Positions 28,007-44,743 of a stretch of DNA of 64,000 nucleotides are shown piece by piece. Position numbers and translations under genes: made by a program. The notes under the pieces are model-generated. The model ran no database searches, had not been told where the DNA came from, and saw nothing but the letters and a program-made list of their open reading frames with translations. The DNA comes from a virus. Location of the stretch: IMG/VR virus record IMGVR_UViG_3300035681_000001, positions 96,001-160,000 of that record. One strand, given 5' to 3'. Positions within the stretch are counted from its first letter, which is position 1. Each line of letters starts with the position of its first letter.

Positions 28007-28012
28007 TCTAAT

Positions 28013-28608: not shown

Positions 28609-28614
28609 TTTTAT

Positions 28615-28638
28615 ACCCCCGGAAACGGGGGTTTTTTT
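28615..28638 (+). promoter_or_regulatory. Hairpin/T-tract element, copy 6
   Basis: ACCCCCG GAAA CGGGGG TTTTTTT, then AC GTAGGT-CTAGT-ACCTAC hairpin; ATG at 28672. Confidence 0.8.
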
Positions 28639-28671
28639 ACGTAGGTCTAGTACCTACACCACTAACAAACC

Positions 28672-28890
28672 ATGGCTATCTGCAAAACCTACTGGTCCCA
28701 AGTTTCTGCTTGGGCAGAAACCCTAATATGGAAGGGGGAGGTAAAGCTCCCTACTTCATATTCAGCTGCCTTGTTAAAGGCAGACCTGCTAGTTGCTTTA
28801 AAGCAATTAGCGGGCGAGAGCCCAGTTAAGTACCGCCTGCAAAGGCGGAGGGCGCCTTACCTGCACTTTGTGCTGGAAATAAGGCGGTAA
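28672..28890 (+). CDS. Small hypothetical protein (cassette 6)
   Basis: 72-aa ORF between elements 6 and 7. Confidence 0.65.
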   Translation: MAICKTYWSQVSAWAETLIWKGEVKLPTSYSAALLKADLLVALKQLAGESPVKYRLQRRRAPYLHFVLEIRR

Positions 28891-28899
28891 TCTAACTTT

Positions 28900-28937
28900 C
28901 CCCCGGAGGGTGCCCCTGCACTCCGGGGGCTTTTTTG
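28900..28937 (+). promoter_or_regulatory. Hairpin/T-tract/G element, copy 7
   Basis: CCCCCGGAG..CTCCGGGGG C TTTTTT G, then GTG-C-TTAGC AATTCA GCTAA-CAC. Confidence 0.8.
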
Positions 28938-28977
28938 TGCTTAGCAATTCAGCTAACACTTAAGCCCTCGGAGGGTC

Positions 28978-29073
28978 ATGGTCAAATCTACTTTCGGCAA
29001 CTTTATAGCCGTACGTCGCCGTGAGCGGCGTAAGAAGCTGTGGGCTACCTTTAAGAGGTGGTTGCGCAAGTAA
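28978..29073 (+). CDS. 31-aa basic peptide (cassette 7; below the ORF-track cutoff)
   Basis: GGAGG RBS; MVKSTFGNFIAVRRRERRKKLWATFKRWLRK*. Confidence 0.6.
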   Translation: MVKSTFGNFIAVRRRERRKKLWATFKRWLRK

Positions 29074-29081
29074 CTGCCTTT

Positions 29082-29103
29082 AACCCCTACGGGGGTTTTT
29101 TTG
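29082..29103 (+). promoter_or_regulatory. Hairpin/T-tract/G element, copy 8
   Basis: AACCCC TACG GGGG TTTTTTT G, then GTGGG..CCCAC GGAGG; ATG at 29134. Confidence 0.85.
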
Positions 29104-29133
29104 TGGGCTATCGTTAACACCCACGGAGGTAAC

Positions 29134-29400
29134 ATGTCGAGACTACAGCACCGCTTCGCAGCACGGGCTTACAACCTGTGCTGCGAGGCGGAAGCCTACG
29201 GTTTCGTCAATTCGGGCTGGTTACCACCGGCTCGACTTGACGACGACCACCTCCAGGTGTGGGTTGCAACGCTTTTAGGGCGCTGCAACCACTTAGCAGA
29301 GTTCTTGCTAAGGGCTACTCTGGTTTATCCAGAGGCAGCACACACCCTTAACCGGGTACGTCGGCTGGTCAAAGACTACCGACGTGGCCACTTAGGTTAA
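29134..29400 (+). CDS. Small hypothetical protein (cassette 8)
   Basis: GGAGG RBS; 88 aa. Confidence 0.7.
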   Translation: MSRLQHRFAARAYNLCCEAEAYGFVNSGWLPPARLDDDHLQVWVATLLGRCNHLAEFLLRATLVYPEAAHTLNRVRRLVKDYRRGHLG

Positions 29401-29402
29401 CT

Positions 29403-29428
29403 AAAACCCCCGTAAGGGGGTTTTTTTG
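29403..29428 (+). promoter_or_regulatory. Hairpin/T-tract/G element, copy 9
   Basis: AAAACCCCC GTAA GGGGG TTTTTTT G, then GTGGG..CCCAC; ATG at 29459. Confidence 0.85.
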
Positions 29429-29458
29429 TGGGCCTCGTTAACACCCACTAAGCTAACC

Positions 29459-29833
29459 ATGTTCAACCTATTCCGTGCCGTTGCCGCTGATGCCTCCACC
29501 CCCATGGAAGCAATTAGTGCGCAACAGCAGCAGGACACTGTTGCTACCGAGGTCGCGTTGAAAGACGCGACTAAGATCAAGCAACAGGCAATGCTGCTAC
29601 GCAACGCAGCTGCAGACGCAAAACGTCTGCGGTTAGAGTTGCGCAAAGCCGAAAGGGTACAGGCTGAAGCCTGTGCTGAATTAGTTGCTGCTGAGGCAGA
29701 GGTTCTGGCTCTTCTTGATAGAGGGTTGGATAATCTTACTTTGGAGCCCCAAGGGACTCCAGAACCACAGGTCCCAGAACCTCAGTTGCAATTTGTAGCT
29801 GAAGACTTTCCTGCCCCGCCTGCACTGCCTTAA
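29459..29833 (+). CDS. Coiled-coil protein, paralog A (cassette 9)
   Basis: Shares 'STPMEA..LKDA..KQA.LLRNAA.DAKRLR.EL.KA..VQAEACAELV.AE' with the next gene. Confidence 0.75.
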   Translation: MFNLFRAVAADASTPMEAISAQQQQDTVATEVALKDATKIKQQAMLLRNAAADAKRLRLELRKAERVQAEACAELVAAEAEVLALLDRGLDNLTLEPQGTPEPQVPEPQLQFVAEDFPAPPALP

Positions 29834-29847
29834 TTAAGTAATCAACT

Positions 29848-29874
29848 AAGCCCCCGGAAACGGGGGCTTTTTTG
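29848..29874 (+). promoter_or_regulatory. Hairpin/T-tract/G element, copy 10
   Basis: AAGCCCCCG GAAA CGGGGGC TTTTTT G, then GTGGG..CCCAC; ATG at 29905. Confidence 0.85.
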
Positions 29875-29904
29875 TGGGCTCCGTTAACACCCACTGAGCT
29901 AATC

Positions 29905-30282
29905 ATGTTCAACTTTCGTGCCCGTGCTGCCAAGCCTACTTCCACCCCCATGGAGGCAGTGCTTGCTCAGCAAGCGGCAGATGCTGCCGGTACTGAAGCC
30001 GCGTTGAAAGACGCGGTTTCAGTAAAGAAGCAGGCCGTGTTGCTTCGCAATGCGGCAGTAGACGCAAAACGTCTGCGGGTTGAGCTATTAAAGGCTCAAA
30101 AAGTGCAGGCTGAGGCTTGTGCTGAACTGGTCTTAGCAGAGCAAGAGGTATTTGATCTTCTTAACGGAGGGTTGGATGCTCTTACTCTGCAGCAACCAGA
30201 GCAGCCAATGCCAACGCCGCCTCCACTGCCAGTGATCCAACCACTAGCAGTGGAGGACTACTTCCCTCCTAAACTTAACTAA
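29905..30282 (+). CDS. Coiled-coil protein, paralog B (cassette 10)
   Basis: Paralog of 29459..29833. Confidence 0.75.
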   Translation: MFNFRARAAKPTSTPMEAVLAQQAADAAGTEAALKDAVSVKKQAVLLRNAAVDAKRLRVELLKAQKVQAEACAELVLAEQEVFDLLNGGLDALTLQQPEQPMPTPPPLPVIQPLAVEDYFPPKLN

Positions 30283-30294
30283 AATTAAGTAACT

Positions 30295-30319
30295 AAGCCC
30301 CTTAACGGGGGCTTTTTTG
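30295..30319 (+). promoter_or_regulatory. Hairpin/T-tract/G element, copy 11
   Basis: AAGCCCCT TAAC GGGGGC TTTTTT G, followed by a structured non-coding unit instead of an ORF. Confidence 0.8.
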
Positions 30320-30430
30320 TAAGCTTTAGCTTAACCAATAAGAGCCGTTGCTCTGGCTGTGTATCGCACAGGTTGGTTAAGTTAAAGCTGCACCCCCTAA
30401 ACGTGCTAGCACATACGGGGGAAACTACTA
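30319..30430 (+). ncRNA. Candidate structured small RNA (three-way junction plus 3' hairpin) occupying cassette 11
   Basis: AGCTTTAGCTTAACCAA (30322) pairs with TTGGTTAAGTTAAAGCT (to 30389; one G-U pair), enclosing AGAGC-CGTT-GCTCT and CTGTG-TATCG-CACAG. A CCCCC..GTGCTAGCAC..GGGGG hairpin follows. Confidence 0.55.
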
Positions 30431-30471
30431 CTACTTATTAGTACACGGGGGCAAGTTTATAACCTTAACGT

Positions 30472-30496
30472 ACATCCGGAAACGGGGGTTTTTTTG
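30472..30496 (+). promoter_or_regulatory. Hairpin/T-tract/G element, copy 12 (weakened left arm)
   Basis: ACATCCG GAAA CGGGGG TTTTTTT G, then CCTGGC AATTCA GCTAGG; ATG at 30527. Confidence 0.75.
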
Positions 30497-30526
30497 TCCT
30501 GGCAATTCAGCTAGGCGTTAACACCC

Positions 30527-32368
30527 ATGGTTAAAATGACCCGCACCCGCCGCCAAGCAACTGCAGCTAAGGCTGCACGCATCAAAGCCTCCCAAGTTAA
30601 AAGTGCACGTCGTGCACTCCAGTTGCAATTTGACTACTACAACTTTGAATTAGTAACTGCAGGCAAAGCTGCGGTTGCATGGAACGAATCTGGAAAAGCT
30701 ACACCTATAAAATTTGTTACCGGTACCGGTACCAGCCAAGCTTCTGGTTGGTACCAAGAAGCTTGTACCAAAGCTGCTGCGGTAGCAGCGGAAGCTGTTG
30801 CTAGAACAGCACGTAAAACTGAACAAGCGGCACGTGCTCCTTGGGAGCAGCTTTGGGTGCTGCTTAAAGCTCAATATGGGCTGCAATTCAGTATTACTGC
30901 TGCTGAGTGGGAATCCCGGCAGTTAGATGCTGCTAAAGCTAAAGCTTTAGGACTTAGGTCTCCTAAACTTTCAAAAGCCCTAGTAGCTTTAGGGGTACCT
31001 ACCTCAGAAGTCTCCTTATTGTTAGGAGCTACTAAAACGGCGGTAACAGCTGCCGCAACTAACACAGACACTTGGGTGTCTAGTGATCTTAAAGACCTGT
31101 GGGATCAAGGCAATTCTAAACACTACTCAAGCTGTCAAGCTACTGACAGCCGTGCGGCTTGGGGTGGTGATACAAATTGGTGTGACATAGCTGCAGAAAC
31201 TAAGCACCTAGGTCAGCACCTGTTCTTATGGCTAATAGGCCAGAGGATGTCCATAGATGGCACCGGTTTTACGGCACGTGCTAAATTACGCGTGCTGTAT
31301 TATGACGAGGAGGCTACCGAGATAGCTGGTCTTTACATAGACCGCCCTTACGGAGCAGCGAGTACGTTAAAAGCTGGGTTAGCTCAGCTAGCTGAGTGGT
31401 GGGCTACTCGCAGCCACACTCCTATCTTTATGCCCACTACGTGGGAACGCCGAGACGGTGCCGGCAATGACTTTCAGTACCAATATGGTGGGCTACACGA
31501 GGAAAAACTATATTCACCCTCATCAACCTCAGGCTACCAGGACACCTGCACGCAGGGTGCCGGACCTTACGACTTTATGGTGCCAGTAGCACAACACGGC
31601 AGCCTTATACGGCGTGCTTTTACCGCACGTCCCAAAGAAGGTAACGTGTACCTACTGCCCCTAGCAGCAGTTAAGTACAACCCTCAAACTGATAAGTTTA
31701 CGGTACCTAAAGTGGCTACTAGGTCAGCACGGAGGCCTATTACGGAATCCTACCGCTATGTACGTAGTTTAGCTGTCAGCCTTGGGCTAACCGACTTTAA
31801 ATATGTTGGACAACAAGGAGTCGGCTATGGCACTCCTACCACTATTTACCAAGCAGGTAGTTATAAGTTTTTCGTCAACAAGAACTTAATACAACTAACT
31901 GATGACATGGGCCACACTACATACTGTGAGTGGGAAGAAGGAAGGCTGACAGTAAAAGAAGGTAATGTAGAATTAGGCTTAGTAATATCACAATCCTTAC
32001 CTTACGATTATAACGCTTCAGAGCGGTCCTTAACGGTATCAGCAGAAGAGTATTGGTGTCCAGATGTAGTCCGGGACTATGGATTTATGAAAGCTGAAGA
32101 ACTACCTTATACGCACGATAGTAAAGAACTTAGAGTGGTATCAGAGACTGGGGATTTTGAACTAGCAATAGAGCTACAGTACACCTGTAGTCCTGGACTA
32201 CTAGTAGTAGTACACGAGCCCATAGGATGGTATAAAGCAGTGGCTTTAGATAAAAGTAATATATCAGCTAATGTAGGTCACGTCTACATTAAAGACCACG
32301 AAGATTTTCTAGTGTATCATAAGCTTTTATGGGCAGAAAAGGATATTTTGTGGTGGAACTATAGATAG
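30527..32368 (+). CDS. Large hypothetical early protein (613 aa)
   Basis: Basic N-terminus; central 'SSDLKDLWDQGNSKHYSSCQ' and 'KLRVLY..YIDRPYG'. Function not assigned. Confidence 0.75.
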   Translation: MVKMTRTRRQATAAKAARIKASQVKSARRALQLQFDYYNFELVTAGKAAVAWNESGKATPIKFVTGTGTSQASGWYQEACTKAAAVAAEAVARTARKTEQAARAPWEQLWVLLKAQYGLQFSITAAEWESRQLDAAKAKALGLRSPKLSKALVALGVPTSEVSLLLGATKTAVTAAATNTDTWVSSDLKDLWDQGNSKHYSSCQATDSRAAWGGDTNWCDIAAETKHLGQHLFLWLIGQRMSIDGTGFTARAKLRVLYYDEEATEIAGLYIDRPYGAASTLKAGLAQLAEWWATRSHTPIFMPTTWERRDGAGNDFQYQYGGLHEEKLYSPSSTSGYQDTCTQGAGPYDFMVPVAQHGSLIRRAFTARPKEGNVYLLPLAAVKYNPQTDKFTVPKVATRSARRPITESYRYVRSLAVSLGLTDFKYVGQQGVGYGTPTTIYQAGSYKFFVNKNLIQLTDDMGHTTYCEWEEGRLTVKEGNVELGLVISQSLPYDYNASERSLTVSAEEYWCPDVVRDYGFMKAEELPYTHDSKELRVVSETGDFELAIELQYTCSPGLLVVVHEPIGWYKAVALDKSNISANVGHVYIKDHEDFLVYHKLLWAEKDILWWNYR

Positions 32369-32389
32369 AAATTCTAAGTTAGCTTTACC

Positions 32390-32417
32390 AGCCCCCTCTT
32401 AGGAGGGGGCTTTTTTG
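32390..32417 (+). promoter_or_regulatory. Hairpin/T-tract/G element, copy 13
   Basis: AGCCCCCTC TTAG GAGGGGGC TTTTTT G, then GTCTTAGC AATTCA GCTAGGAT. Confidence 0.85.
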
Positions 32418-32454
32418 TCTTAGCAATTCAGCTAGGATTTTCGCCTCGCAAAAC

Positions 32455-33030
32455 ATGTTCGAGACTACTCGCATTGAACAGCTTGTAAAGAGCACAGACT
32501 ACCGCTTTTACATTCAGGACCACCACAACGTTTTGGTGTGGTGCTTGGGGCAAGGAGAAGACTCAGATACTAGTTACGGTGGTGAGTCTTTAGAGTCTGC
32601 CTTAGAATGCTATAACGCTAGTTTAAAAGCTGAATGGCAACCTACCCAAGCTCTTAGCTTGCTGGCCAGCGACGTACAGCTGGTACGAATGGATTTACCA
32701 ATAAACACAGCGTATCAATCGGAGATAGATTTTCTCCTAAACCTGGAGAGTATAATAGGTACTGAGATGATGAAGGAAGATAATGAACCTGCGGCTGCTT
32801 TTAAGAAAACTCATCGTATTGAAGCTGCCGCTGTCGCGTTGCAAAGAGGTAAAGTTGTAAGGGTCCGCAAAGGAGACTTAGGTTCAAAAGTAGGTACAGA
32901 ATTACAAAGACTTAAAGTAGAAATTGAGAGGCTCCTTGTTAACAATGAGTCAAGTAACGTTGAAGATAAATGGAGGCTAAGCATAGCTCCTAGCCAAGGT
33001 GATTATCTATTGAGAGCCCGCCGCGTTTGA
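32455..33030 (+). CDS. Hypothetical protein (cassette 13)
   Basis: 191-aa ORF between elements 13 and 14. Confidence 0.7.
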   Translation: MFETTRIEQLVKSTDYRFYIQDHHNVLVWCLGQGEDSDTSYGGESLESALECYNASLKAEWQPTQALSLLASDVQLVRMDLPINTAYQSEIDFLLNLESIIGTEMMKEDNEPAAAFKKTHRIEAAAVALQRGKVVRVRKGDLGSKVGTELQRLKVEIERLLVNNESSNVEDKWRLSIAPSQGDYLLRARRV

Positions 33031-33041
33031 GTAGTTAAATT

Positions 33042-33068
33042 AAGCCCCCTTAACCGGGGGCTTTTTTG
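33042..33068 (+). promoter_or_regulatory. Hairpin/T-tract/G element, copy 14
   Basis: AAGCCCCC TTAACC GGGGGC TTTTTT G, then GTGC-TTCG-GCAT. Confidence 0.85.
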
Positions 33069-33125
33069 TGCTTCGGCATAGTGGTACCTAGCGCACTATA
33101 AAATGCTGGGTTTGCCTCAAAAAAA

Positions 33126-33653
33126 ATGAGCTCCACTAAAGATGCAGTCAAAGCCACCATTAAGTGGTTGGTTACAGAAACACCCAACCAGCCCCCGTGC
33201 TGGGTTAGGGCCACAGCCGCAGTAGTAGCACTGTTGGCTACTTACGGCATTTTAGCTTATGAGTTTATTGCTGAAGTCTGGTCCTTAGGAGTAGAAGGCT
33301 TATATGACCTAAACGATATACTGGCCGAACATTGGGTTAGCTGGTGGTGCCCTGGTTACGTAAAAGCAATAGAAACTCCAGTAAAACCTACGGTTGAGGT
33401 TACTACTAAATTTGTGGTAAAAGCTGTGGTAAAAGCTATAGAAACCGTAGTAGTAAGTGAAGTAAGTGAAGTAAGTGAAGTAAGTGAAGTAGCTACAGTA
33501 GAAACCAAGTTAGCTGAAGTAGCTGAAGTAGCTGAAGTCAAGGCAACAGCTCCCGCACCTACTGAAATCTTAGGAGAAATGGTAGATATTTTTAGTGTGA
33601 GTGCTACGCCTAACCGGGCTACTCGCCGCCGCCGCAGCCGCACCACTAAGTAA
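33126..33653 (+). CDS. Membrane-anchored low-complexity protein
   Basis: One hydrophobic segment; (VSE)4 and (AEV)3 repeats encoded by 9-nt tandem repeats; Arg-rich tail. Confidence 0.65.
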   Translation: MSSTKDAVKATIKWLVTETPNQPPCWVRATAAVVALLATYGILAYEFIAEVWSLGVEGLYDLNDILAEHWVSWWCPGYVKAIETPVKPTVEVTTKFVVKAVVKAIETVVVSEVSEVSEVSEVATVETKLAEVAEVAEVKATAPAPTEILGEMVDIFSVSATPNRATRRRRSRTTK

Positions 33654-33830
33654 TCTCTCAGCGCCGGCCGGACAGGCGCTATACAAATTAGATCACACCT
33701 ACTAGTAGGGCCGGCAGCTGTGTTAAGGGACTATGAAATGAGTTACCTAGACAGTCCAGCTACAAGTCTTGCACGTGCTAGTGCAAGACTTGAAACACTC
33801 ACCCAACCCCCTCAACTCACCAACCCCCTC

Positions 33831-36800
33831 ATGAACACCGCCACCACAGCAAAAAACAAAGAAAACCAAAAAGGTAACGAAAAGACCATGCCCCAAGTGG
33901 TATTCAAGTTCTACCACCACGAGGTTAATCCAGAAGCCACCAAAGTGGCAATTCTGGCGCCAGGCCATGCTGCTGGTCCGGTGAACGCTAATGTGCCAGT
34001 TAACTTTGATACCGGCCACCTGGACAAGGCATGGGATACCATGAACCTACAAGGGGTCAACCGCCGTATTGACTGGCAAGGTACTCGCCTGGGTGCTGGA
34101 TCTGCTCAGTTCCGCGAAACTGACGGTAGTTTTAGTCCGGTAGTGTGGTCCTCGACACCCCGCACACGTAACTTGCGTGCGCCGGTGCAACTACTGTTGG
34201 CAACTTTAGTGGGAGGTCAACCTGATTGGGTAACGGGTGCGGTACCTTCTGGAAACGATGCTGCTATTCGGCAGCACGTAGCGGCAGCTATAGCTGCAGG
34301 TAAGTCACATGACTACTCGCAACACGGCTTCAGTTTGGAAGCCTACGTGTCTTTGAGTGAGATCCTAGCTCAACCTGGAGCTATACACCCTGTAACTGGA
34401 GCACCTACCGGGCGGCATTGGTTTGGTGTAATAGGTCAAGTTTACTCCATGGATACTTGTACCACTGGCGGTGCAGTACAAACGCGCTACAACTGTAGTG
34501 CATTTGATTTGTATTACTTGCCAGAGCCTGAATTCGGGCACAGTTCTTTAACACCACTCGACCCTTACGGTAAGTTAAATTTGTACGAGTCTTTGACTTA
34601 CGTACCCGAAGCCAAGGTGCTGCCCACTACTACGGTGGTGCTGCCTGCCGTACCTACGGCAGTACCTACTGCCGTACCTACTGCCGTAGGTAGTACCACA
34701 GTGTCAACTGCTGACACGCGTCGGTACTGGAATAGCTTTGGTATTCACGGTCTGCAGGTGCAGGAAATAACAGTAGATTCAGTAGTCCACGACTTTGATC
34801 TGATCAATAATTTTGAGGGCTGGAGTGAAATCCAATCTTTATTCCGTCTAGACGGCAGCGCGGCAGCTGCTGCAGTAACCGTTGCTGATGCAGCGCGGTA
34901 TTGGGTGTCCAAGAAGATGTATGGGAGTTACCAAAAAATAGGCGACCTAGCAGCCTACGAATGGACTGTTGCAGACTTGAAAGACTTGATCGAAATCATT
35001 GTAAAAGTGGGTACCAGCCGTGGCCTTGACGCTGACCACTTACCCTGTTGGTCTGGTGAGATGCTGCAGTTTGGGGCCGGCGGTCCTGCCTTTAAGGTGC
35101 TAGATAAGCGTATATATGACTACCGTGGGCGGTTGTTGCAAAACGTAGTAGAGCTAAAGGTTAGCTCCCACGTAAACGAATCAGGTCGGATGGAGTATAC
35201 CCTAGATGGTCTCCAGCAGGTCTCCAGTGCTACCCAGCTGCTTAAGTTGGTGTATTTCGGCTACTTGCCGCTATTAGCTCAGTCCATTACACAAGTAATG
35301 GACGCACTACCTGCAAACTTTAGTGAGTTTTGTAGGAATGCCTGGGTAGGAGCTAACCTAGTTAGTTGGTCGAAAGACCAAGTACTAGAACAAAACTCCG
35401 CCGCACGGCTGCGGATGGATAACTGCTATCCGATGACTATACGTCAGCCATATAGCCCGTTGAGCGGATCCTATTGGGTTCGCCTTAACGAAGACGGCCG
35501 CTTTGCGGCTAACTTAGTTAGCCACTACGAGAAACAAATCCGGTACTCCTCCAAAGAGTGTTCGGATTTGTTTAAAGAAGCCATTCGAGTAGCTTACCGT
35601 GAAGGTGGTCTAGACTACCGCTTTGACAAAAAGCTGTTAGTTGGTGGTGGCTTAGGTGCTGTAAACTGCCGGCTGTTGGCAGCTAATGACCCTGCAGCTT
35701 TTGCTGCTTTGCAGGCTAAGTTTGGGGTTACTGAGAGCTCAGTGCTATCTGGCACCCTGAAACTAGCTAAGGGTCTAAAGCGGCTGTTTTTGTCAATGGC
35801 ACAATCAGTGCCTGTCAAAGGTGCACTCCCAGCTGGGTTCTTGTTTAGAGGCCAAGAGTCTCCTGTGGAAGGGTTTTTGGCAGCAGTAGCATTAGCACCT
35901 ACTGTGGTGTTTACACCCGGTATGTCTGCCAGCGTAGGTGCTAAACCTGTAGCTGAAGTACGTAAGACCGTTAGGAATTACGTATTGCACTCTTTTGGCA
36001 CTGAACCTGAGTTCTTGATGGGCTTAGGGTGTGCTATCAAGCCTAACAACGTAGTTACTGAAACTACGCTGGGGATCACCCGTTATACGCTGGTAAGACC
36101 CACACCCATCAAGCCTAATGATTTACTGATACAAGTCGCTAACCCTAGTGGCTCAGTAAATGATGTAGTAAACACCTCTACATTTGAGGGTGATCTACAG
36201 TGGCTGGAATGGCAAGTCGTTCCTAGTATGCTGCCAGGGCAGACAGAGCTTAAACTCAGTTGGGAATTCCTAACTTACGAGAGCGATATGAAAGCTCGCT
36301 CGATTGCTAAAGCGCTGCTGGTAGACGTTAATCCAGACGTAATATTCGCTCATAATAAAGACCTAGGTGATGTAGACATCATCCACTTCCAAGACTCTTT
36401 GAAGGTGGATTTGTGGTGGTCTTACCTGATGTGTGCTGGGACTACCTTACGTTACAACTGGGATAAGCCTGAAGTAGCAGAACTCCGCCGGTTGGCGGTA
36501 GCCATTAACTCTAGGTTTGGGTTTGCAGCCTTTCAAGGCATACTAATAGACCCCGTGCATATAGCACTAGGTCACTACGACGCGTTCCAAGCTGAGTTCC
36601 GTAGGCTTTTCAGTCGGCCATTGTGGTTTAAGTTCGCTCAACTAGCCGAGTTCGGGCGTTTGTTATATGACATGCACCAGTCAGACCAATACGAACGGGT
36701 GGACTTGGGTGACGGTTACGAAAGTTACGTCACTAAAGGTGCTGACCCTAACGCACCAGACACCAACATCACCTCTTTTGTGGTGGAGTCCGGTACCGTC

Positions 36801-39800
36801 ACCGAAATCTGGCAGCGCGGGATGTGTCTAGTAGGCACTGAAACCTGCCCGGTTTATAACGTGGAACTCTTCGAGTCTACTACACCTAAAGAAAACGTAG
36901 GTGAGTCCTGGCAGTTCCCTTCAGAGCTGCGTGCACTGCAGTCCATCACCAGCAATGGTGTAAACCCTAAAGCGTTGGATGAGCTCACCAACACGATAAA
37001 AGCAGACATCCTGCCTAATTTGGCTATGGCTAAAATCCTGGAAGGGATGGCTAGCGGTAGTCTACTCGGAGGTAAGCGCACCATAGCAGTAGAAGCTGCA
37101 GCCGACGGGCACTACCAAGTATCTACTGCAGTGCACGCCCGGTTGCAGCAAATAGTAGCAGAACTAGGTGTAAACCTAGCCGCACCCGCAGAAGCTTTTG
37201 AAAAGCTGTCTGTAAGACTAAAAGACGTAGTCTTTACCTTTAAGGTGTCTGGCAAAGAGACCAGCATTTGGCTTCCTGCATTGTGGGAACTCAATAAGCT
37301 GCGTTCTACCAACGAGTCTGGGCAAACTTTGTCCAGTGTGTTCTACCGTTATTTCTTAGTGCCGCTGTGTCTCAACAACCACGTTGAAGCTGCAGTAGTA
37401 ATAAGACTTCGCGGTCAGCTTAGTTCGTTGTTGTACTCTAGCGAAACACCTAAGCTGCTGAAAGGCCGCACTAAAATAGGTGGTCGCCGTGTAGGTTTAC
37501 CTTGTATCCCCATAAGTGAAACTTGGGTGTTGTATTCAGATGACCCGAGTTCTGAGTACCAAAACGCACTGCAGTATTGCCGGCGTGCATCGTTAAACCT
37601 AGAAATAGGCCTTAACGACCACTTGGTCGGTTACAACTCACGTGCACCACTAGCAGCTGGCTGGTTGTCTAAACTGCGTGTGATTACACCTGCAGAAAAC
37701 ACCAGTAACTATTGGCAACTGAGCCCTTACTATTTGGGTATCAGTCCAGTAGCGCTGTACATAGACGGTGGTGATTGTGACGGTGACTCAGGCTATTGGG
37801 CTGAACAAGGACCTGAGTTTGAGAGTGAAATCCTGGACTACCAAACCGTTATAAATATCCGCAATGCGGGTATGGATGGCGACTGTCGGTATACAGGTAG
37901 TTACGCTTACGCGCACTACACGCGTAAGGATTGGGCTAAAGCTACCGTAACTATGTCTTCGGGAGTTATCAGTGGGTGTGTAATGACAGAAGAGCAGTAT
38001 TGCTCTTATAACGTCGGTGCACACATCGTACAACACGAAGCTGTCGGGTCCAGCTATAAGCTGTACATGCTAGGTGAACACTTGATTGACTGTGCTCAAG
38101 CTTATGAAAAACTAGGCATTGAGTGTGAGTTGTTGAAGCCCTTTATGGGTGCTCTAGCACCTAGTTTGGTGCTGATACTGGCAGAAATCTACGAGACTAT
38201 TCTCGGCGGTTTTACTCCAGAAGCACTGGAGTTGTTTGAAAGCTACCTCAAACCGGCTATCAAACAAGGTAAGCCTATCGCACTTAAGCAGCTTACTGAT
38301 TTTCGTAAGTTGCTGGAGCGCTTTGGAGCTAACTCTTTAAGAGCTGAGGAAATCCTAAAGTTGATCAATGTGATCTCTTTAGTAGCTGCCAGTGAAGTCA
38401 ACGGGTATCTGTCCCGTGAATACACTGGTTGGGATGGCCTAGCTTTAAGTGCAGCTCATGTTGTATTCGAGCTGGGTCGCGGTCGCTTTCACGGTATGTC
38501 AGCCTTTACTAAAGGTCAAATGCCTCAAACGCGTCAAGCGTTAGGGCAAAAAGCCGCACTAGTTAAGTTCTACGAACTGCTGCTAGGTGGACTGCAGACT
38601 AACCGTGAGTTGTACCACCGCTTATCGGAGACTTCTTCAGTAATAGGTTGCGGTAGGGTGCTGTTCAAGCACCTGCACGTAGAACTCGGGTTGATTAGTT
38701 CTAATTATCCCTGGTTGCGTCCAAACCTAACAGAACTGCAATGGCTTCCAGAAGTCTTTGAGCAGTTTAAGTGCTGTCAGCTTGCACCAGCTACTACCGA
38801 ACTTACTGAGACTACAACCGAAATTACAGTTGAAGCTACTACTGTAGCTACACCTGAACCTACTACTGCTACTACTACTAAACCTATTACAGTTCAAGTT
38901 ACACCGGAACCTACGTCAGCCGCACTACTTGAAACACTAAAGAAAAGTGTTTTATTTGAGCTTTGTGCTGAGCGTGGTCTTACAGTAGCCAAAAAAGCTA
39001 CCAAAGAGCAGTTGGTAAGCGCTTTACTAACTGACCCTAACGGACCACCCTCAGAGGCTTTAGTTATTGAGGTTTCACAAGACCCGGCAACTAAAGCTCT
39101 GAAGCAACGTATTGCTGAACTAGAAGCTCAAGTTGCCCAACTGGAGGCTCAAGTTACGCAAGACCCAGAAGATCCTGAAGAGCCACTCGCTGTAGTGTCT
39201 AAACCTAAACCGGACCCCAAACCTGATTCAGGTGCTGGGACAAGCGAACCCACCACACCCATTGCACCCGCTACCATGTCCGCTACATCAACGGCAGTCA
39301 ACGTACCTGCAGGTATGCCGGCTGACCTAACACCTTCTCAGATTAGAGCGTTTGAGTTGTTTCAACAAGGCCACAATTTGGTCATCACTGGAGCAGCAGG
39401 TACAGGTAAAACCTACCTTAGTAACTTGCTTAGGGAATACGCCCTTAAGAAAAACTACAAACTAGTAGTAGTAGGTTCCACAGGCACTTCGGTACTAAAT
39501 ATCAAAGGTGACGGCACCCTTAACTCCGTATTTGGGTTGGGTCTAGGTTTTAGTGGTAAACGCCCTTCGGGGCTAGAGGCCGACAGTTTACTAGCTGCTT
39601 CCAGAAGATCCCAGATTTGTAACGAGTACTTAGCGCTTACTGATGAAGCTGGTTTGATAATACTGGTAGACGAAGTAAGCATGGTAGATACTAAACTAGC
39701 TCGCCTAACGTGGGATATCACAGCACTACAAAACCACCCTACTCAGTGGGTGTTGATAGGCGATCCAGGACAGTGTACTCCTCCAGGAGGAGAGCTGTTC

Positions 39801-40679
39801 TTTAAGGATTCTACGTTGGACTATGAAGACTACACTGAACCGTATGAGTCTTTGCTAAAAATCGGTGATTTTAAATGCGTAGCCTTAAAAGAAGTCGTAC
39901 GTCAAGCTAACGATCCTGCTTTTTTAGCAGATCTAAACGACTTGCGAGTAGGTAAGACCCCAGGTTTAGTACTAAGAGAGCGCTTTGTGGCGTCTATTAA
40001 AGGATTACCGGAGCAAGCTATACACGCTTATTACAACAACGCAGACGTTGCTTTACACAACCGTAAGGGTACTGAACAACTTATTGCTGCCGGTGCTGAG
40101 TCTAGGGTATACCATGCCACGGTAAGAAAAATAAGTTCTGGGGCTCCTGATTGGCCCGCACAATTCAGCCCTATTGAGCCTCAAATGACACTGGCTATTG
40201 GTATGCCAGTAATGGTACGTAAGAACCTAAAAGCAGCAGATAGAACTTTACTAGCGTCTAACGGCACCACTGGTGTGGTAATAAAACTAAATCCAGATTC
40301 AGTGGTGCTAAAACTGAAAAACGGTAAAACTATCACTATCTCCCAACAAGAACTAGACGGCCCTAAAGACGGTAAAGGTCGTGATCTAGGTAAATACAAA
40401 CAACTGCCCTTGCACCCAGCGTTTGCCATTACCGGGCATAAGCTGCAAGGTCTAACCCTAGACGAACCTTTGGTGGTACACCTCTACCAAAGCGGCAGGT
40501 ACGGTCAAAGAGCAATCAATACTGCAGGCTGGTTGTACGTAGTATGCTCCAGAGTTACAGAAGCTCGACATTTATACTTTGCAGTAGGAGATGCTGATCC
40601 AACCGTAGTGTTTAATTGGTTCCTGAGTGGCAACCGAGTTGATCAGTCAGCGCTGGAATGGCTTCAGAGCCTGGAATAA
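33831..40679 (+). CDS. Two-barrel RNA polymerase-like protein fused to a SAP/HeH-like motif and a C-terminal Pif1-family (SF1B) helicase
   Basis: Numbering from 33720: MKARSIAKALL (K858/R860/K864), then DVDIIHF; KLLKGRTKIGGR..GLP; NSRAPL (R1308); LGISPVALYIDGGDCDGD (D1352/D1354/D1356). Helicase motifs: GAAGTGKT (1891-1898), LVDEVSM, IGDPGQ, LKEVVRQAND, AITGHKLQGLTLD, YVVCSRV. ATG 33831 (C/A-rich leader) or 33888 is preferred over 33720. Confidence 0.8.
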   Translation: MNTATTAKNKENQKGNEKTMPQVVFKFYHHEVNPEATKVAILAPGHAAGPVNANVPVNFDTGHLDKAWDTMNLQGVNRRIDWQGTRLGAGSAQFRETDGSFSPVVWSSTPRTRNLRAPVQLLLATLVGGQPDWVTGAVPSGNDAAIRQHVAAAIAAGKSHDYSQHGFSLEAYVSLSEILAQPGAIHPVTGAPTGRHWFGVIGQVYSMDTCTTGGAVQTRYNCSAFDLYYLPEPEFGHSSLTPLDPYGKLNLYESLTYVPEAKVLPTTTVVLPAVPTAVPTAVPTAVGSTTVSTADTRRYWNSFGIHGLQVQEITVDSVVHDFDLINNFEGWSEIQSLFRLDGSAAAAAVTVADAARYWVSKKMYGSYQKIGDLAAYEWTVADLKDLIEIIVKVGTSRGLDADHLPCWSGEMLQFGAGGPAFKVLDKRIYDYRGRLLQNVVELKVSSHVNESGRMEYTLDGLQQVSSATQLLKLVYFGYLPLLAQSITQVMDALPANFSEFCRNAWVGANLVSWSKDQVLEQNSAARLRMDNCYPMTIRQPYSPLSGSYWVRLNEDGRFAANLVSHYEKQIRYSSKECSDLFKEAIRVAYREGGLDYRFDKKLLVGGGLGAVNCRLLAANDPAAFAALQAKFGVTESSVLSGTLKLAKGLKRLFLSMAQSVPVKGALPAGFLFRGQESPVEGFLAAVALAPTVVFTPGMSASVGAKPVAEVRKTVRNYVLHSFGTEPEFLMGLGCAIKPNNVVTETTLGITRYTLVRPTPIKPNDLLIQVANPSGSVNDVVNTSTFEGDLQWLEWQVVPSMLPGQTELKLSWEFLTYESDMKARSIAKALLVDVNPDVIFAHNKDLGDVDIIHFQDSLKVDLWWSYLMCAGTTLRYNWDKPEVAELRRLAVAINSRFGFAAFQGILIDPVHIALGHYDAFQAEFRRLFSRPLWFKFAQLAEFGRLLYDMHQSDQYERVDLGDGYESYVTKGADPNAPDTNITSFVVESGTVTEIWQRGMCLVGTETCPVYNVELFESTTPKENVGESWQFPSELRALQSITSNGVNPKALDELTNTIKADILPNLAMAKILEGMASGSLLGGKRTIAVEAAADGHYQVSTAVHARLQQIVAELGVNLAAPAEAFEKLSVRLKDVVFTFKVSGKETSIWLPALWELNKLRSTNESGQTLSSVFYRYFLVPLCLNNHVEAAVVIRLRGQLSSLLYSSETPKLLKGRTKIGGRRVGLPCIPISETWVLYSDDPSSEYQNALQYCRRASLNLEIGLNDHLVGYNSRAPLAAGWLSKLRVITPAENTSNYWQLSPYYLGISPVALYIDGGDCDGDSGYWAEQGPEFESEILDYQTVINIRNAGMDGDCRYTGSYAYAHYTRKDWAKATVTMSSGVISGCVMTEEQYCSYNVGAHIVQHEAVGSSYKLYMLGEHLIDCAQAYEKLGIECELLKPFMGALAPSLVLILAEIYETILGGFTPEALELFESYLKPAIKQGKPIALKQLTDFRKLLERFGANSLRAEEILKLINVISLVAASEVNGYLSREYTGWDGLALSAAHVVFELGRGRFHGMSAFTKGQMPQTRQALGQKAALVKFYELLLGGLQTNRELYHRLSETSSVIGCGRVLFKHLHVELGLISSNYPWLRPNLTELQWLPEVFEQFKCCQLAPATTELTETTTEITVEATTVATPEPTTATTTKPITVQVTPEPTSAALLETLKKSVLFELCAERGLTVAKKATKEQLVSALLTDPNGPPSEALVIEVSQDPATKALKQRIAELEAQVAQLEAQVTQDPEDPEEPLAVVSKPKPDPKPDSGAGTSEPTTPIAPATMSATSTAVNVPAGMPADLTPSQIRAFELFQQGHNLVITGAAGTGKTYLSNLLREYALKKNYKLVVVGSTGTSVLNIKGDGTLNSVFGLGLGFSGKRPSGLEADSLLAASRRSQICNEYLALTDEAGLIILVDEVSMVDTKLARLTWDITALQNHPTQWVLIGDPGQCTPPGGELFFKDSTLDYEDYTEPYESLLKIGDFKCVALKEVVRQANDPAFLADLNDLRVGKTPGLVLRERFVASIKGLPEQAIHAYYNNADVALHNRKGTEQLIAAGAESRVYHATVRKISSGAPDWPAQFSPIEPQMTLAIGMPVMVRKNLKAADRTLLASNGTTGVVIKLNPDSVVLKLKNGKTITISQQELDGPKDGKGRDLGKYKQLPLHPAFAITGHKLQGLTLDEPLVVHLYQSGRYGQRAINTAGWLYVVCSRVTEARHLYFAVGDADPTVVFNWFLSGNRVDQSALEWLQSLE

Positions 40680-40751
40680 ACCTAGCTCACGTAGCGGTCA
40701 TATTAGAGTAACTTAGCGTAGCAGTCATAACTTAAAAAGTATTAAGTTAAA

Positions 40752-40793
40752 CGTCCCAGCGTCTCCTACCTGAGGGGGCGCGGGGGGGTTTTT
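40752..40793 (+). terminator. Probable intrinsic terminator after the RNAP-helicase gene
   Basis: GC-rich imperfect stem ending in GGGGGGG TTTTT. Confidence 0.55.
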
Positions 40794-40983
40794 AAAAAAG
40801 TAAAACGGGCGCCTCGTTTTTGCAAATGTCTCAAAAAAGCAAAGCACCTGTCAGTCCAATACTGGCAGCTTTAAATAAGGTGGAGGTCCTCAAGACCCCG
40901 CCCAAAGCTTAGTTTTTGAGCCTTATCCAAAAAAGGATAGGGCTCGTCCACCAACCCCACTCAACTCAACGCAACCTCCTACT

Positions 40984-41382
40984 ATGACTGTTTACCTGAT
41001 GAACACAACCGTCATCCCCTCGGGAACAGACGGTATCTGGGAAACTCGGGCTCTACCTGTAGAGGCAGCCCGCCTAAATCTTAAGGACTGGGTTTCCGCT
41101 GTGGGGCATGACTCCACAGCGGAGATTATGTCTGAGCTACTCGGGGTAGACATACCCGTCAACCGGGTAGCCGTTAAGCCCGTCCCCGGCGACCGACTGC
41201 TCTGTTTTAAGTTGAAGGGCCGCGCACCAGAAGGTGTTGTGCTCGATCGCCAGCAGCTTGAAAAAATCGGATACGAATGGGTCCTCATGACCTATCACGG
41301 TACGGTTGGCGCAGCGATCGACGCTGCCTTCAAAGACGTAGATAACTACATCATGGCGGTGAGGACTCACCCTCACCTATGA
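40984..41382 (+). CDS. acrIII-1: AcrIII-1 family ring nuclease (DUF1874), anti-type III CRISPR
   Basis: SAVGH(42)DSTAEIMSELLGVDIPVNR(61)...GDRLLCFKLKGR(80)APE(83)G. The H-R-R-E spacing of +19/+19/+3 is identical to that recalled for SIRV1 gp29 (H47/R66/R85/E88). Confidence 0.9.
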   Translation: MTVYLMNTTVIPSGTDGIWETRALPVEAARLNLKDWVSAVGHDSTAEIMSELLGVDIPVNRVAVKPVPGDRLLCFKLKGRAPEGVVLDRQQLEKIGYEWVLMTYHGTVGAAIDAAFKDVDNYIMAVRTHPHL

Positions 41383-41522
41383 ATGGCCAGCCGGGAGCCT
41401 GTCCCGGCAACTCCCCACTGCCAATTACAATCAAGCCACAGGACAACTTCCGCTCTATTGGGGGCTCAACTTTTTGCTCAATTTGCAGTAAGTCATTTTG
41501 ATAAAACTGAAAACTGGGACGT

Positions 41523-41957
41523 ATGTCCTATAGAACCACAACCCTAAACCACCTCATGTATTTCACTGAATCGCTACTAAGCTTCAATACAGAAAAACTA
41601 CTAGACCTAAGTAAACATTATCAACGACTGGCATCTCAAACCTCCTACGACGACTTAAGAACATTTCAGGCTTTCAAAAGGGCCAAGCTTGAAATTGATT
41701 GCGAAATAGCTAAGCGTAAAACCCGCCCAACCTACACGCGCTTAACTGACTACCGTACCGGCGAGCCAATCTACTTTGACTCTTCAGTAGTTCCTTTAGT
41801 GGTAAAACAGGAGAAAGACCCTGGTTACCACTACACATTAGTAGTAACTAATCACGGTAGTTACTCCGTTAGAGAAACCGCAGCAGAAGTACTATCAGCT
41901 AGCGGATGCAGTATTTATACACCAGCTCCACGCTGGACAGCAAAAATAGCACCTTAA
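41523..41957 (+). CDS. Hypothetical protein, paralog of 43129..43704
   Basis: Shared blocks FQA.KR.KL.IDCEI..R and HYT...T.H..YSV.ETA.EVL...PAPRWTAKIA. Confidence 0.7.
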   Translation: MSYRTTTLNHLMYFTESLLSFNTEKLLDLSKHYQRLASQTSYDDLRTFQAFKRAKLEIDCEIAKRKTRPTYTRLTDYRTGEPIYFDSSVVPLVVKQEKDPGYHYTLVVTNHGSYSVRETAAEVLSASGCSIYTPAPRWTAKIAP

Positions 41958-41977
41958 ACCACTCACCCCTTACACCC

Positions 41978-42202
41978 ATGAAACTATTCAGCTGCTACAA
42001 CTGTGGTGTAGTACTAGACCCCAAAGTTCTTGCTTGGCCTACTAAACACTTCGACTACTCCAGACAACCTAGATACTCTGGGGATCTCAGTCCATGTGGA
42101 AGGCTAGTAGCAGTGGGGCCGGAGGGCGACTTAAGATGGAAACCTACCCTACCCTGCCCTGTTTGCCAAAACCCCCTAACTGAACCTGGAGCCAATGACT
42201 AA
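41978..42202 (+). CDS. Small zinc-finger protein
   Basis: CYNC...CPVC; ATG 41978 follows a C/A-rich leader. Confidence 0.65.
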   Translation: MKLFSCYNCGVVLDPKVLAWPTKHFDYSRQPRYSGDLSPCGRLVAVGPEGDLRWKPTLPCPVCQNPLTEPGAND

Positions 42203-42413
42203 CCTACCACCACCCGCGACTTGGGGATACATACGCTGGCATAGCAAGCTAACTAGAAGAGAAGGTGGTTGCAACTACCCAATAGCCAACCCTGCCGAGA
42301 AAGTTGCTCAGTTAAATTCGTCAAAGCCTACACTAGAGCACTGGTATATCCCTGTATCAGTAACCCTCCCCTCACCTAGCCAATGGACTTCACCCACCCC
42401 ACAAACGAAGTAA
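42195..42413 (+). CDS. Small hypothetical protein
   Basis: Coupled overlaps with both neighbours. Confidence 0.5.
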   Translation: MTNLPPPATWGYIRWHSKLTRREGGCNYPIANPAEKVAQLNSSKPTLEHWYIPVSVTLPSPSQWTSPTPQTK

Positions 42414-42803
42414 ACCTCGAATATCAAAATGGCAATAAGTACTCAATTGATAAAGAAGGAAATTTAATATACCGTAAGTTTGAAAACGGCGACCAAGAAT
42501 GGTACGAAGGCGCAAAGCTGATTCGTAAAAAAATATGCAAATGGCAGAGAGAAATCTTATTGTTCCGCTGGTACCGTAACCTACCAACAGACTGAACAGA
42601 AGTTGGAGATTTGGTATGACGAGGGACGTATGGAAACTCGTCGTAGGTATCCTAACGGCGATGAAGAGTGGTATGACAAGTTCCATAGGGAAATAAGATC
42701 AGTTTCAGAAGGCCTTACAAAAGAATATACCTACGACGCAGATGGCTACCGTAGAGCCGTAAATCTAAAATACAAGCAAGTTTCTCCTAAGGCCCTGTTC
42801 TGA
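42383..42803 (+). pseudogene. NG-x-x-EWY repeat protein split by a +1 frameshift in an A7 run
   Basis: Removing one A at 42527-42533 joins 42383..42595 to 42603..42803 and restores four units: YQNGNKY, FENGDQEWY, YANGREKSY, YPNGDEEWY. Confidence 0.7.
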
Positions 42804-42820
42804 AACCTTAAAACCCTAAA

Positions 42821-43117
42821 ATGAACACTCCTGAACTAACGTGGGAATCTCGGCAAACCAGATATAGTAATACAGTTAAAACCTACAGAGATGACGGCCT
42901 TTGGTTAGCAGTACGTTTTAAAATCAATCAAGGTTGTTTGTCCTCTTCTGTTAAGACATACAAAACCGACACTTTACTAAACGAAATAAACCTTGATATG
43001 GGTAAGTTTAGTTCTGACGAAGGGGCCAAACTTTTCGCCCAGTTTGCAGTAAGTCATTTTGATAAAACTGAAAACTGGGACGTATGTCCTAACTTAAAAG
43101 TCATTAGTATCTACTAA
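42821..43117 (+). CDS. Hypothetical protein
   Basis: 98-aa ORF whose 3' end is duplicated at 41461-41530. Confidence 0.65.
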   Translation: MNTPELTWESRQTRYSNTVKTYRDDGLWLAVRFKINQGCLSSSVKTYKTDTLLNEINLDMGKFSSDEGAKLFAQFAVSHFDKTENWDVCPNLKVISIY

Positions 43118-43128
43118 CCCACACTCTC

Positions 43129-43704
43129 ATGGATTCTTACGAAGAGACCTTCCACAACTTGATCAAAGATGTGCCCTTAGAAGAGCTACAAGAACTCAGC
43201 AAAAGAGGACAGATTGTAGCTCACGCAGCTCGCGACAATTCAACGTTTCAAGCTGCTAAAAGAACCAAGCTCAGGATTGACTGCGAAATAGGTCGGCGTA
43301 GAGCCCAATCAGTTGCAGTATCTGACTTCCCACGTGCAGTATCTCACCTCCCACATTCCATGAACAACTCCACTATTACTGATTCCCGGGACCAAATGTT
43401 ACAGCAGCCTACGAACTCTGAAGCTCTCAAAAAAACCGAGCCAGTCAACGGGAGTAGACCTCAACCTACAGCACCTTACGTGTGTCTGACAGAGTACGCC
43501 ACTGGAGAGCTTATGTATTGTGACTTTGCAGCAGATCAGCCGTTAATGATAAGAACTATAAGAGCTCCTAACTACCATTACACGCATATTATGACAGCCC
43601 ACGCTGAATACAGCGTTAAAGAAACGGCAGATGAAGTGCTGTTAGCTACCGGGCGGGGTAGCTTTAGACCAGCTCCACGCTGGACAGCAAAAATAGCACG
43701 TTAA
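43129..43704 (+). CDS. Hypothetical protein, paralog of 41523..41957 with an internal insertion
   Basis: See the paralog entry. Confidence 0.7.
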   Translation: MDSYEETFHNLIKDVPLEELQELSKRGQIVAHAARDNSTFQAAKRTKLRIDCEIGRRRAQSVAVSDFPRAVSHLPHSMNNSTITDSRDQMLQQPTNSEALKKTEPVNGSRPQPTAPYVCLTEYATGELMYCDFAADQPLMIRTIRAPNYHYTHIMTAHAEYSVKETADEVLLATGRGSFRPAPRWTAKIAR

Positions 43705-43739
43705 GTCACTACCCACCTACTAACCTACACTCTAGACTC

Positions 43740-43928
43740 ATGAACCCTAACCCCACCACCGCTACCTACCTAAAATGCTCGATGTCTAACTCTGCCATCA
43801 CACTAGCAAAAAAGTGGGAACGCAAGGGTTTTAACCTACGGGTTAAACTCCTCAAACTAAACACCACCACCCAATGGCATCTCCTTACTGGGAACCCACA
43901 GACCAAGGTTCAGACCGAGAAGACCTAG
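43740..43928 (+). CDS. Small hypothetical protein
   Basis: ATG after a C/A-rich leader. Confidence 0.45.
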   Translation: MNPNPTTATYLKCSMSNSAITLAKKWERKGFNLRVKLLKLNTTTQWHLLTGNPQTKVQTEKT

Positions 43929-44055
43929 GTCTAGTCGAACTGTTAGAAGAAACTGCCGGAGATCTCCGGCAAGCTTTGCTCGGTTTGATGAATAAACAGG
44001 AGGAATAAAAAAAGAAAAGCGCCAGGCTGGGTAACCACTCAGCCTGGTCAACACT

Positions 44056-44310
44056 ATGGAACCTTTAGAACTCACGCTAACCCAAAAGTTTGAACTAGAA
44101 AAGTACCAACGGATCATTAGGGAAACCGAAGACCTAGCAGGCCTTAAGAGCCTAGCGGAGACTTTATTTCAAGCTTGGCAGTCACAAAAAGCAGCCACTC
44201 AGTGGCTAATGCGCCAAAACCTCAGCAGACAAACTTATGTCAGTAGCTTGCCCACCGCGCCCACCACGCCCGCCGAGCCCCTACCCGCCCAGCCCACCCA
44301 ACCCACCTAA
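44056..44310 (+). CDS. nblA: NblA-like phycobilisome degradation adaptor
   Basis: 'PLELTLTQKFEL' matches the NblA N-terminal P-h-x-LSLEQ-x-F motif; two amphipathic helices in about 56 aa, ending 'KAATQWLMRQNL'; then a Pro-rich tail. Confidence 0.6.
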   Translation: MEPLELTLTQKFELEKYQRIIRETEDLAGLKSLAETLFQAWQSQKAATQWLMRQNLSRQTYVSSLPTAPTTPAEPLPAQPTQPT

Positions 44311-44324
44311 ACGGTAAACGTTAA

Positions 44325-44405
44325 GGGGGTATGGTGGAACAGCAGACACGCTTGGTTTAGGTCCAAGTGCCGAAAGGTGTGCAGGTTCAAGTCCTGTTAC
44401 CCTCA
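44325..44405 (+). tRNA. trnL: tRNA-Leu (anticodon TAG)
   Basis: Acceptor GGGGGTA/TACCCTC; anticodon arm CTTGG-TTTAGGT-CCAAG; long variable arm; T arm GCAGG-TTCAAGT-CCTGT; CCA not encoded. Confidence 0.95.
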
Positions 44406-44410
44406 CTACA

Positions 44411-44743
44411 ATGCCTAAAACTGATAACCGCCACATGTCTCGGGATTTTACCGGAGACATCTCTGAGTTAGACGACCAGCACCTCAAAAACGTCCTAAAC
44501 CTGCACTTACGGTCTATCGCCACAGCAGGTTATGAAAACTCCTTAAACCGAGTGTGGGTGCTGCCGCCTTACTTAGCAGAAGCCCGGAAACGTAACCTAA
44601 AGTTTCCATCTAAAGGGGCATTCCCTGAAATCATTAGTCGCATAGACAATGAAGACTGGGAGTGGGAATTCGAGTCGTTAGGCCGGGCAGATGCCTACGA
44701 GTTTGAAGAATTCTATGGTATTACCTCTTACGTAGACCTTTAA
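44411..44743 (+). CDS. Hypothetical protein
   Basis: 110-aa ORF directly after the tRNA. Confidence 0.6.
   Translation: MPKTDNRHMSRDFTGDISELDDQHLKNVLNLHLRSIATAGYENSLNRVWVLPPYLAEARKRNLKFPSKGAFPEIISRIDNEDWEWEFESLGRADAYEFEEFYGITSYVDL

Follow-up and report, generated by a model that had tools for sequence, protein, structure and literature searches.

A giant phage protein joining a predicted two-barrel RNA polymerase to an SF1B helicase

The stretch of DNA analysed here (the window) is 64,000 nucleotides long and corresponds to bases 96001-160000 of the IMG/VR phage record IMGVR_UViG_3300035681_000001, which is 189,763 bp in length with an estimated completeness of 96% and represents a large, uncultured freshwater phage. 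It contains a gene, here termed the RNAP-helicase gene, whose predicted product combines an RNA polymerase (RNAP) with a helicase. With slightly better than even confidence we interpret this product as a single-chain, two-barrel, DNA-dependent phage RNAP of the clade that includes QDE-1, YonO, crAss gp66 and the P23-45 enzymes, with an active 5'-3' SF1B helicase permanently attached. Judged from sequence comparisons, an undescribed family of giant phage proteins, both old and diverse, conserves the pairing of polymerase and helicase, whether as a fusion or in adjacent genes. Single-chain two-barrel RNAPs are already known in phages (YonO, crAss gp66, and P23-45 gp64 and gp96). The original prediction, made from the letters of the window and a list of its open reading frames (ORFs), knew of no characterised example of the fusion, and a literature search likewise found no paper on an SF1B helicase fused to, or genetically coupled with, an RNAP of this type.

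Reading frame and domains of the RNAP-helicase gene

The gene is uninterrupted through 2,282 codons and a stop codon (Table 1), and its frame is open from a GTG at 33720 to 40679 (2,319 codons); residues are numbered throughout from this upstream GTG (protein P0001). The start is placed at Met38 (nt 33831), where the alignment with three relatives of ~60% identity begins, and an identical 2,282-residue product is called by gene callers on three other metagenome contigs from other assemblies. Because the same protein is called on those contigs, misassembly or a hidden stop in the linker is unlikely. The open frame, the alignment at Met38 and the identical products thus bear out the original prediction of one gene with neither stop nor frameshift between its parts, and all of the motifs it listed are present at the positions it gave.

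The C-terminal domain (residues 1866-2319) is a complete SF1B helicase. It matches Pfam families AAA_30 (3.5e-11), PIF1 (1.1e-08) and AAA_19, all above their cut-offs, as well as the PHROG 325 'Dda-like helicase' (9.5e-46) and the Pif1 structures 5fhd and 7ada (1e-14 to 1e-15). In the alignment with Bacteroides Pif1 (5fhd), which spans ~390 residues, each of the seven helicase motifs has its counterpart, including K1897 and D1984-E1985 (I, GAAGTGKT; Ia, STGTS; II, DEVSM; III, GDPGQ; IV, RQ; V, HKLQG; VI, VCSR), and membership of the SF1B family suggests that the domain would translocate 5'-3' on single-stranded DNA. An earlier assignment to the Pif1 family finds support in that the SF1B helicase is complete and the Pfam PIF1 score exceeds its cut-off (35.5 bits against 25.9), but AAA_30 and PHROG 325 score higher, and in the 5fhd alignment HPTQ stands in place of the PFGG core of the signature motif that Pif1 has between motifs II and III. 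The closest known SF1B helicases, T4 Dda (PHROG 325), bacterial and eukaryotic Pif1 (5FHD, 7ADA, 5O6B) and RecD2, are free-standing or part of repair or replication complexes, whereas in P0001 the helicase forms the C-terminal part of a polymerase.

The N-terminal 1,650 residues have no match in Pfam, PHROG or PDB sequences, and a word-index search for relatives returned only three, all of the same architecture. A family profile covering residues 545-1699, searched against 1.84 billion cluster representatives, returned 64 proteins, 28 of them with E-values below 1e-30 and most between 1,400 and 4,500 residues long; the family set used here contains 67 proteins and includes P0001 and its three close relatives. 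Residues K858, R860, K864, D892, K895, Y953, R1033, E1052, R1308, P1310 and G1351-D-x-D-G-D1356 are invariant in 31 diverse members, and GD.DG[DGR] is present in 59 of the 67. They fall where the basic residues of a beta-like barrel, and the 'NRAP' and 'NADFDGD' motifs of a beta'-like barrel, would be expected. The beta'-like barrel carries the DxDxD metal-binding triad D1352-C-D1354-G-D1356, unchanged in all 31 sequences, and the predicted beta-like barrel has its basic residues in the invariant K858, R860 and K864, which open the stretch matched, in the fold alignment, to the first QDE-1 barrel. The three beta'-like motifs on which the polymerase was originally proposed prove to be the most conserved positions of the family.

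An AlphaFold2 model of residues 780-1700, built from the family alignment, has a pLDDT of 82.8 and a pTM of 0.79 and contains two double-psi beta-barrels. Among 48,161 PDB chains, the structures that match it best are two-barrel RNAPs, which make up almost all of the best 50 rows of the Foldseek search; their E-values are weak (0.01-0.3), and there was no match to the model at E ≤ 0.001. Alignments to QDE-1, RDR2 and P74 gp62 begin at model residues 42-75 (residues 821-854 of P0001), those to Rpb1/beta' folds extend to model residue ~869, and the neighbours in the ESM Atlas comprise phage proteins with Rpb1/Rpb2 domains, PolD DP2 and the LEF-9 of baculoviruses. Although moderate in score, the fold matches are consistent with one another and fit the invariant motifs, and we accept the modelled two-barrel polymerase fold for this reason; an RNA polymerase seems more likely than a DNA polymerase. 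Structure prediction by domain therefore agrees with the RNAP assignment first made from short motifs. The model also includes a 42-residue helix (residues ~1424-1465) in the helical region after the catalytic barrel, which may be the equivalent of the bridge helix.

The region ahead of the first barrel is modelled poorly (pLDDT 53.5 for residues 38-800, and below 50 for residues 38-386). A phmmer search with residues 38-540 returned only P0002-P0005 and short matches to three other proteins, and Pfam has no family for residues 38-386. Residues 387-779 are possibly equivalent to the N-terminal lobe or protrusion of RNAP beta subunits, and as a lead we note that the N-terminal third would fit the order beta-like N-terminus, beta barrel, beta' barrel. 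A hint of an ADP-ribosyltransferase in this third, from the Atlas, was not borne out.

Table 1. Features of the RNAP-helicase gene and its predicted product; nucleotide positions are those of the window.
Feature	Residues	Nucleotides	Strand	Basis or content
Whole gene, RNA polymerase-helicase fusion		33831..40679	+	Open frame, alignment, three contigs
N-terminal region	38-386	33831..34877	+	Common only to nearest relatives P0002-P0005
Family-conserved region before first barrel	387-779	34878..36056	+	Invariant D467/R469/R471 (YDYRGR), D553, K681/K684/K687/R688
First predicted double-psi beta-barrel (beta-like, DPBB-B)	~780-905	36057..36434	+	Invariant K858, R860, K864 (nt 36291-36311), D892, K895
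Second predicted double-psi beta-barrel (beta'-like, DPBB-A)	~1245-1374	37452..37841	+	K1245..K/R1256..P1261, N-S-R1308-A-P1310, G1351-D1352-C-D1354-G-D1356
Motif KLLKGRTKIGGRRVGLP	1245-1261	37452-37502	+	Translation
Motif NSRAPL	1306-1311	37635-37652	+	Translation
Metal-binding motif GGDCDGD	1350-1356	37767-37787	+	Translation
Helical region after catalytic barrel	1375-1690	37842..38789	+	Secondary structure of model
Linker	1691-1865	38790..39314	+	Thr/Pro stretch, SAP/Rho_N-like element, coiled-coil-like run, Pro/Ser/Thr-rich tail
Thr/Pro-rich stretch	~1691-1730		+	Translation
SAP/HeH-like segment LETLKKSVLFELCAERGL..KATKEQLVSALL	1737-1770	38928-39029	+	Translation
Coiled-coil-like heptad run AELEAQVAQLEAQV	~1785-1820	~39072-39179	+	Translation
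SF1B helicase (Dda/RecD2/Pif1-like)	1866-2319	39315..40676	+	Pfam, PHROG 325, Pif1 structures
Walker A GAAGTGKT	1891-1898 (K1897)	39390-39413	+	Translation
Walker B	D1984-E1985	39669-39674	+	Helicase domain

Coupling of polymerase and helicase across the family

A homologous C-terminal helicase is fused to the polymerase in 33 of the 67 family-set proteins, four of which are P0001 and its three close relatives. Among the unfused members examined, five of six have the helicase as the next gene downstream (E-values of 4e-14 to 6e-66 against the P0001 helicase). A FastTree phylogeny built on the polymerase core has fused as well as split members to either side of its midpoint root, and fused P0035 is the sister, with a support of 100, of P0044, for which the helicase is the adjacent gene. 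Because the two forms interleave in this way, including as sister pairs, we take the pairing to be ancestral, with fusion or fission having occurred more than once.

The segment that connects the two halves is variable. Across the family, the DxD motif and the helicase are separated by 319 to 1,447 residues, and the SAP-like and coiled-coil block of P0001 (residues ~1731-1830) is absent from P0002-P0004 (alignment columns 1731-1863). The block is thus a lineage-specific insert of this phage and not a conserved connector, and since the three closest relatives do without it, the earlier view that the halves are fused via a SAP/HeH motif does not hold in general. By eye, the spacing L..L....L..L...RGL.......K..L...L fits a SAP/HeH-type motif, and by language-model features the top cluster for the linker scores 0.91 (178 of 256 features shared, with Rho_N in 12% and SAP in 11% of its members), with further SAP and Rho_N clusters at 0.84-0.85. 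Pfam, however, gives no SAP, HeH or Rho_N match for residues 1691-1867 at E ≤ 10, only weak coiled-coil families, and we treat a SAP/Rho_N-like element as a lead.

Other domains are found in the giant relatives. One example is the gap between polymerase and helicase in P0013 (residues 2725-3053) and P0025 (residues 1285-1376), which holds NADAR and AlkB-like 2OG-Fe(II) oxygenase domains. In another relative there is an Amidoligase_2 domain N-terminal to the polymerase, and the family appears to collect accessory enzymes.

With P0001, P0037, P0030 and P0012 as tblastn queries against 50,697 phage records, there were helicase matches only, or none, and a pattern search of IMG/VR derived from the alignment of close relatives matched nothing related. 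The family profile found no homologue in the nearest cultured phages by major capsid protein (Ma-LMM01, MaMV-DH01 and My-WqHQDG), a search that had no positive control and shows little.

Possible roles of the tethered helicase

A role in transcription is the most likely, because the genome carries a full replication set elsewhere and because RNAPs are the best structural matches. We propose that the RNAP-helicase would transcribe phage genes independently of the host sigma-70 polymerase, and this is supported by the depletion of sigma-70-like promoters around the gene (3 against 15.9 ± 3.5 expected, window 26500-44500). In this phage and in at least eight related loci the gene is surrounded by small unannotated ORFs that all run in one direction, and it is not part of the structural module, a position that favours an enzyme made early and not carried in the virion.

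The helicase could ride the non-template strand in the 5'-3' direction, which is physically the same direction as that of a polymerase reading its template 3'-5', so that it would open the duplex and hand a single-stranded template to the polymerase. This proposal is by analogy with QDE-1 of Neurospora crassa (PDB 2J7N, 7Y7P), the best structural match, which works best on single-stranded DNA and in vivo needs a separate helicase, QDE-3, together with RPA (bioRxiv 10.1101/2020.03.07.982082). In the phage described here, the SAP-like insert may add a further point of DNA binding. Both QDE-1 and the plant RDR2 are single-chain two-barrel RNAPs of eukaryotic RNA interference, and neither has detectable sequence similarity to P0001. 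The helicase partner of QDE-1 is a separate RecQ-type protein whereas that of P0001 is a fused SF1B enzyme, and P0001 is phage-encoded and has ~740 extra N-terminal residues.

A broader version of this interpretation is tentative, and we regard it as rather doubtful. It holds that the family is an ancient and widespread phage transcription module, of which this is the first recognised member, in which a QDE-1-like polymerase able to use only single-stranded DNA depends by necessity on a coupled 5'-3' helicase to produce its template. Such a module could open promoters without any sigma-like factor and elongate on duplex DNA, and would be the viral counterpart, possibly the ancestor, of the partnership between QDE-1 and QDE-3/RPA that starts eukaryotic RNA interference.

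Two groups of phage enzymes offer further comparisons. The crAss-like virion RNAP phi14:2 gp66 (PDB 6VR4) is, like P0001, a giant protein (2,180 residues); it is a single-chain two-barrel enzyme, extremely divergent from cellular RNAPs and placed in a QDE-1-like clade by its authors' comparisons. It has no helicase, whereas P0001 has one fused, and its gene adjoins tail genes and its product is found in virions, whereas the RNAP-helicase gene is in a small-ORF array. The second group comprises the P23-45/P74-26 non-virion RNAP gp64/gp62 (PDB 8F5M, 8F72) and the virion RNAP gp96 (8H2M). These polymerases are ~600 residues long, have no helicase and no sequence similarity to P0001, and the fusion partner in gp96 is a tape-measure protein.

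Several observations weigh against our interpretation. First, there is no sequence link to a polymerase: a 24-sequence family profile found no RNAP at E ≤ 10 among all PDB sequences, phmmer against the same sequences linked no polymerase to the N-terminal half, and neither Pfam nor PHROG gave a polymerase family for the whole protein or for residues 38-779. The absence extends to gp66, for which hhalign of the family profile gives a probability of 0.1% and an E-value of 0.5, and which is not matched by the profile in the PDB search, nor among the best 50 rows of any of the three PDB fold-search lists. Second, coupling to a helicase is not absolute, as the P0019/P0021 lineage has no fused helicase and the P0021 locus has no adjacent one either. 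Third, the non-virion assignment follows from gene position alone, and within the same broad clade the crAss-like polymerases are carried in virions. Fourth, the NADAR, AlkB-like and amidoligase domains of the giant relatives recall those of injected polyvalent proteins.

The last two points bear on the rival that survives best, in which the same polymerase-helicase is packaged in the capsid and injected in the manner of crAss-like gp66, transcribing the first genes of the incoming duplex, with the helicase perhaps helping to draw the DNA in. The characterised phage relatives of the clade do include virion enzymes (phi14:2 gp66 and P23-45 gp96), and the accessory domains of the giant family members would suit an injected protein. 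We nevertheless consider virion packaging unlikely; in at least nine loci the gene is in a co-directional small-ORF array away from the head and tail genes, hhalign finds no sequence link to gp66, and a 3,211-residue ORF of this phage with a GDYDGD motif (window 12854-22489), beside the portal, PAAR and tail genes, is a more obvious virion candidate.

A second rival would have the helicase act behind the polymerase, either stripping the transcript from the template, which would prevent R-loops, or releasing RNA at terminators made of a hairpin and a T-tract. The helicase is Pif1/Dda-like, and helicases of the Pif1 type can unwind RNA:DNA hybrids; the way in which Rho terminates transcription is comparable. 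Much of the apparatus with which cellular RNAPs separate RNA from DNA is missing from small two-barrel polymerases, and the region is dense in terminator-like hairpins (40 against 19 expected, window 26500-44500). The sequence does not tell, however, on which strand or nucleic acid the helicase loads, and as the principal function this seems quite unlikely. It is a serious alternative all the same, being compatible with most of the evidence for template feeding, and the two may coexist.

A replication role is very unlikely, whether as a primase-helicase laying RNA primers at origins or forks, which was among the original suggestions, or as a PolD-like two-barrel DNA polymerase with its helicase, since the genome has its own replication module at 33-60 kb with a DNA polymerase/exonuclease, two other DNA helicases, a clamp loader, a DnaG-type primase and ribonucleotide reductase.

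If the RNAP-helicase is a transcription enzyme, it bears on a general question. Single-chain two-barrel polymerases are minimal relatives of cellular RNA polymerase, and it is of interest how they open a duplex and move along it with neither sigma factors nor clamps nor the rest of the cellular subunits. The solution in this family appears to be a linked helicase, which about half of the cluster representatives carry as a fusion and most of the others examined have encoded by the following gene. It offers a testable system, with two separable active sites in one polypeptide (D1352/D1354/D1356 and K1897) and natural split versions as controls, and an RNA polymerase that unwinds its own template might find use in the laboratory. 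The family is also relevant to the proposal that the eukaryotic RNA interference polymerases, which are likewise helicase-dependent, came from phages. As a sequence family unrecognised by Pfam, PHROGs or the PDB, it could allow giant 'hypothetical' genes in many freshwater phage genomes to be annotated.

Genomic neighbourhood

The head genes (major head protein, protease and portal) are on the minus strand in the left part of the window. The major head protein (window 5161-6483 (-)) shares ~30% identity across 93-98% of its length with its counterparts in the Microcystis phages Ma-LMM01 and MaMV-DC and the Microcoleus phage My-WqHQDG. On the basis of this similarity the phage is probably a distant relative of freshwater cyanophages, and there is a hint of a freshwater cyanobacterial host. 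Within the replication module the only DNA polymerase match is a 450-residue ORF (L009:16329-17681 (+), genome 33028-34380), which matches only positions 672-989 of the 1,445 in PHROG 17 as well as an exonuclease family, and the DNA polymerase gene may be split or interrupted.

Upstream of the RNAP-helicase gene (window 27300-33100 (+)), hairpins of the form AAGCCCCC-GNRA-GGGGGCTT followed by T6-7 and GT are repeated between small genes. There is no such hairpin/T-tract unit between the 175-residue ORF at 33126-33653 and the RNAP-helicase gene, and the two may therefore be co-transcribed. The gene directly downstream (window 40984-41382 (+)) matches STIV_B116-like / phrog_5063, and further along the same strand there are an RtcB RNA ligase (57047-58261 (+)) and two tRNA-Leu genes (TAG, 44325-44406; TAA, 60858-60938 (+)).

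The 3,211-residue ORF is transcribed rightwards (+) and has its GDYDGD motif at residues 2231-2236. Its membership of the RNAP-helicase family was considered and rejected, as only 17 columns around GDxDGD align and the match is not significant by hmmsearch or hhalign; a comparison with gp66 found no link. Homologues of 3,024-3,229 residues are present in the same syntenic relatives, and two half-sites of the HKD (phospholipase D) type in the protein are invariant (H262/K264/N287 and H475/K477/N499). Were it a virion polymerase, the phage would have a cascade of virion and then non-virion polymerases like that of P23-45. Further giant ORFs lie outside the window. Two have no Pfam match (2,261 residues, L009:230-7015 (-); 1,712 residues, L008:10764-15902 (-)), a third, of 4,148 residues, contains PLDc_2 (L012:129-12575 (-)), and a 1,236-residue ORF (L012:13188-16898 (-)) is interrupted by an intein (Intein_splicing, LAGLIDADG_3 and PT-HINT).

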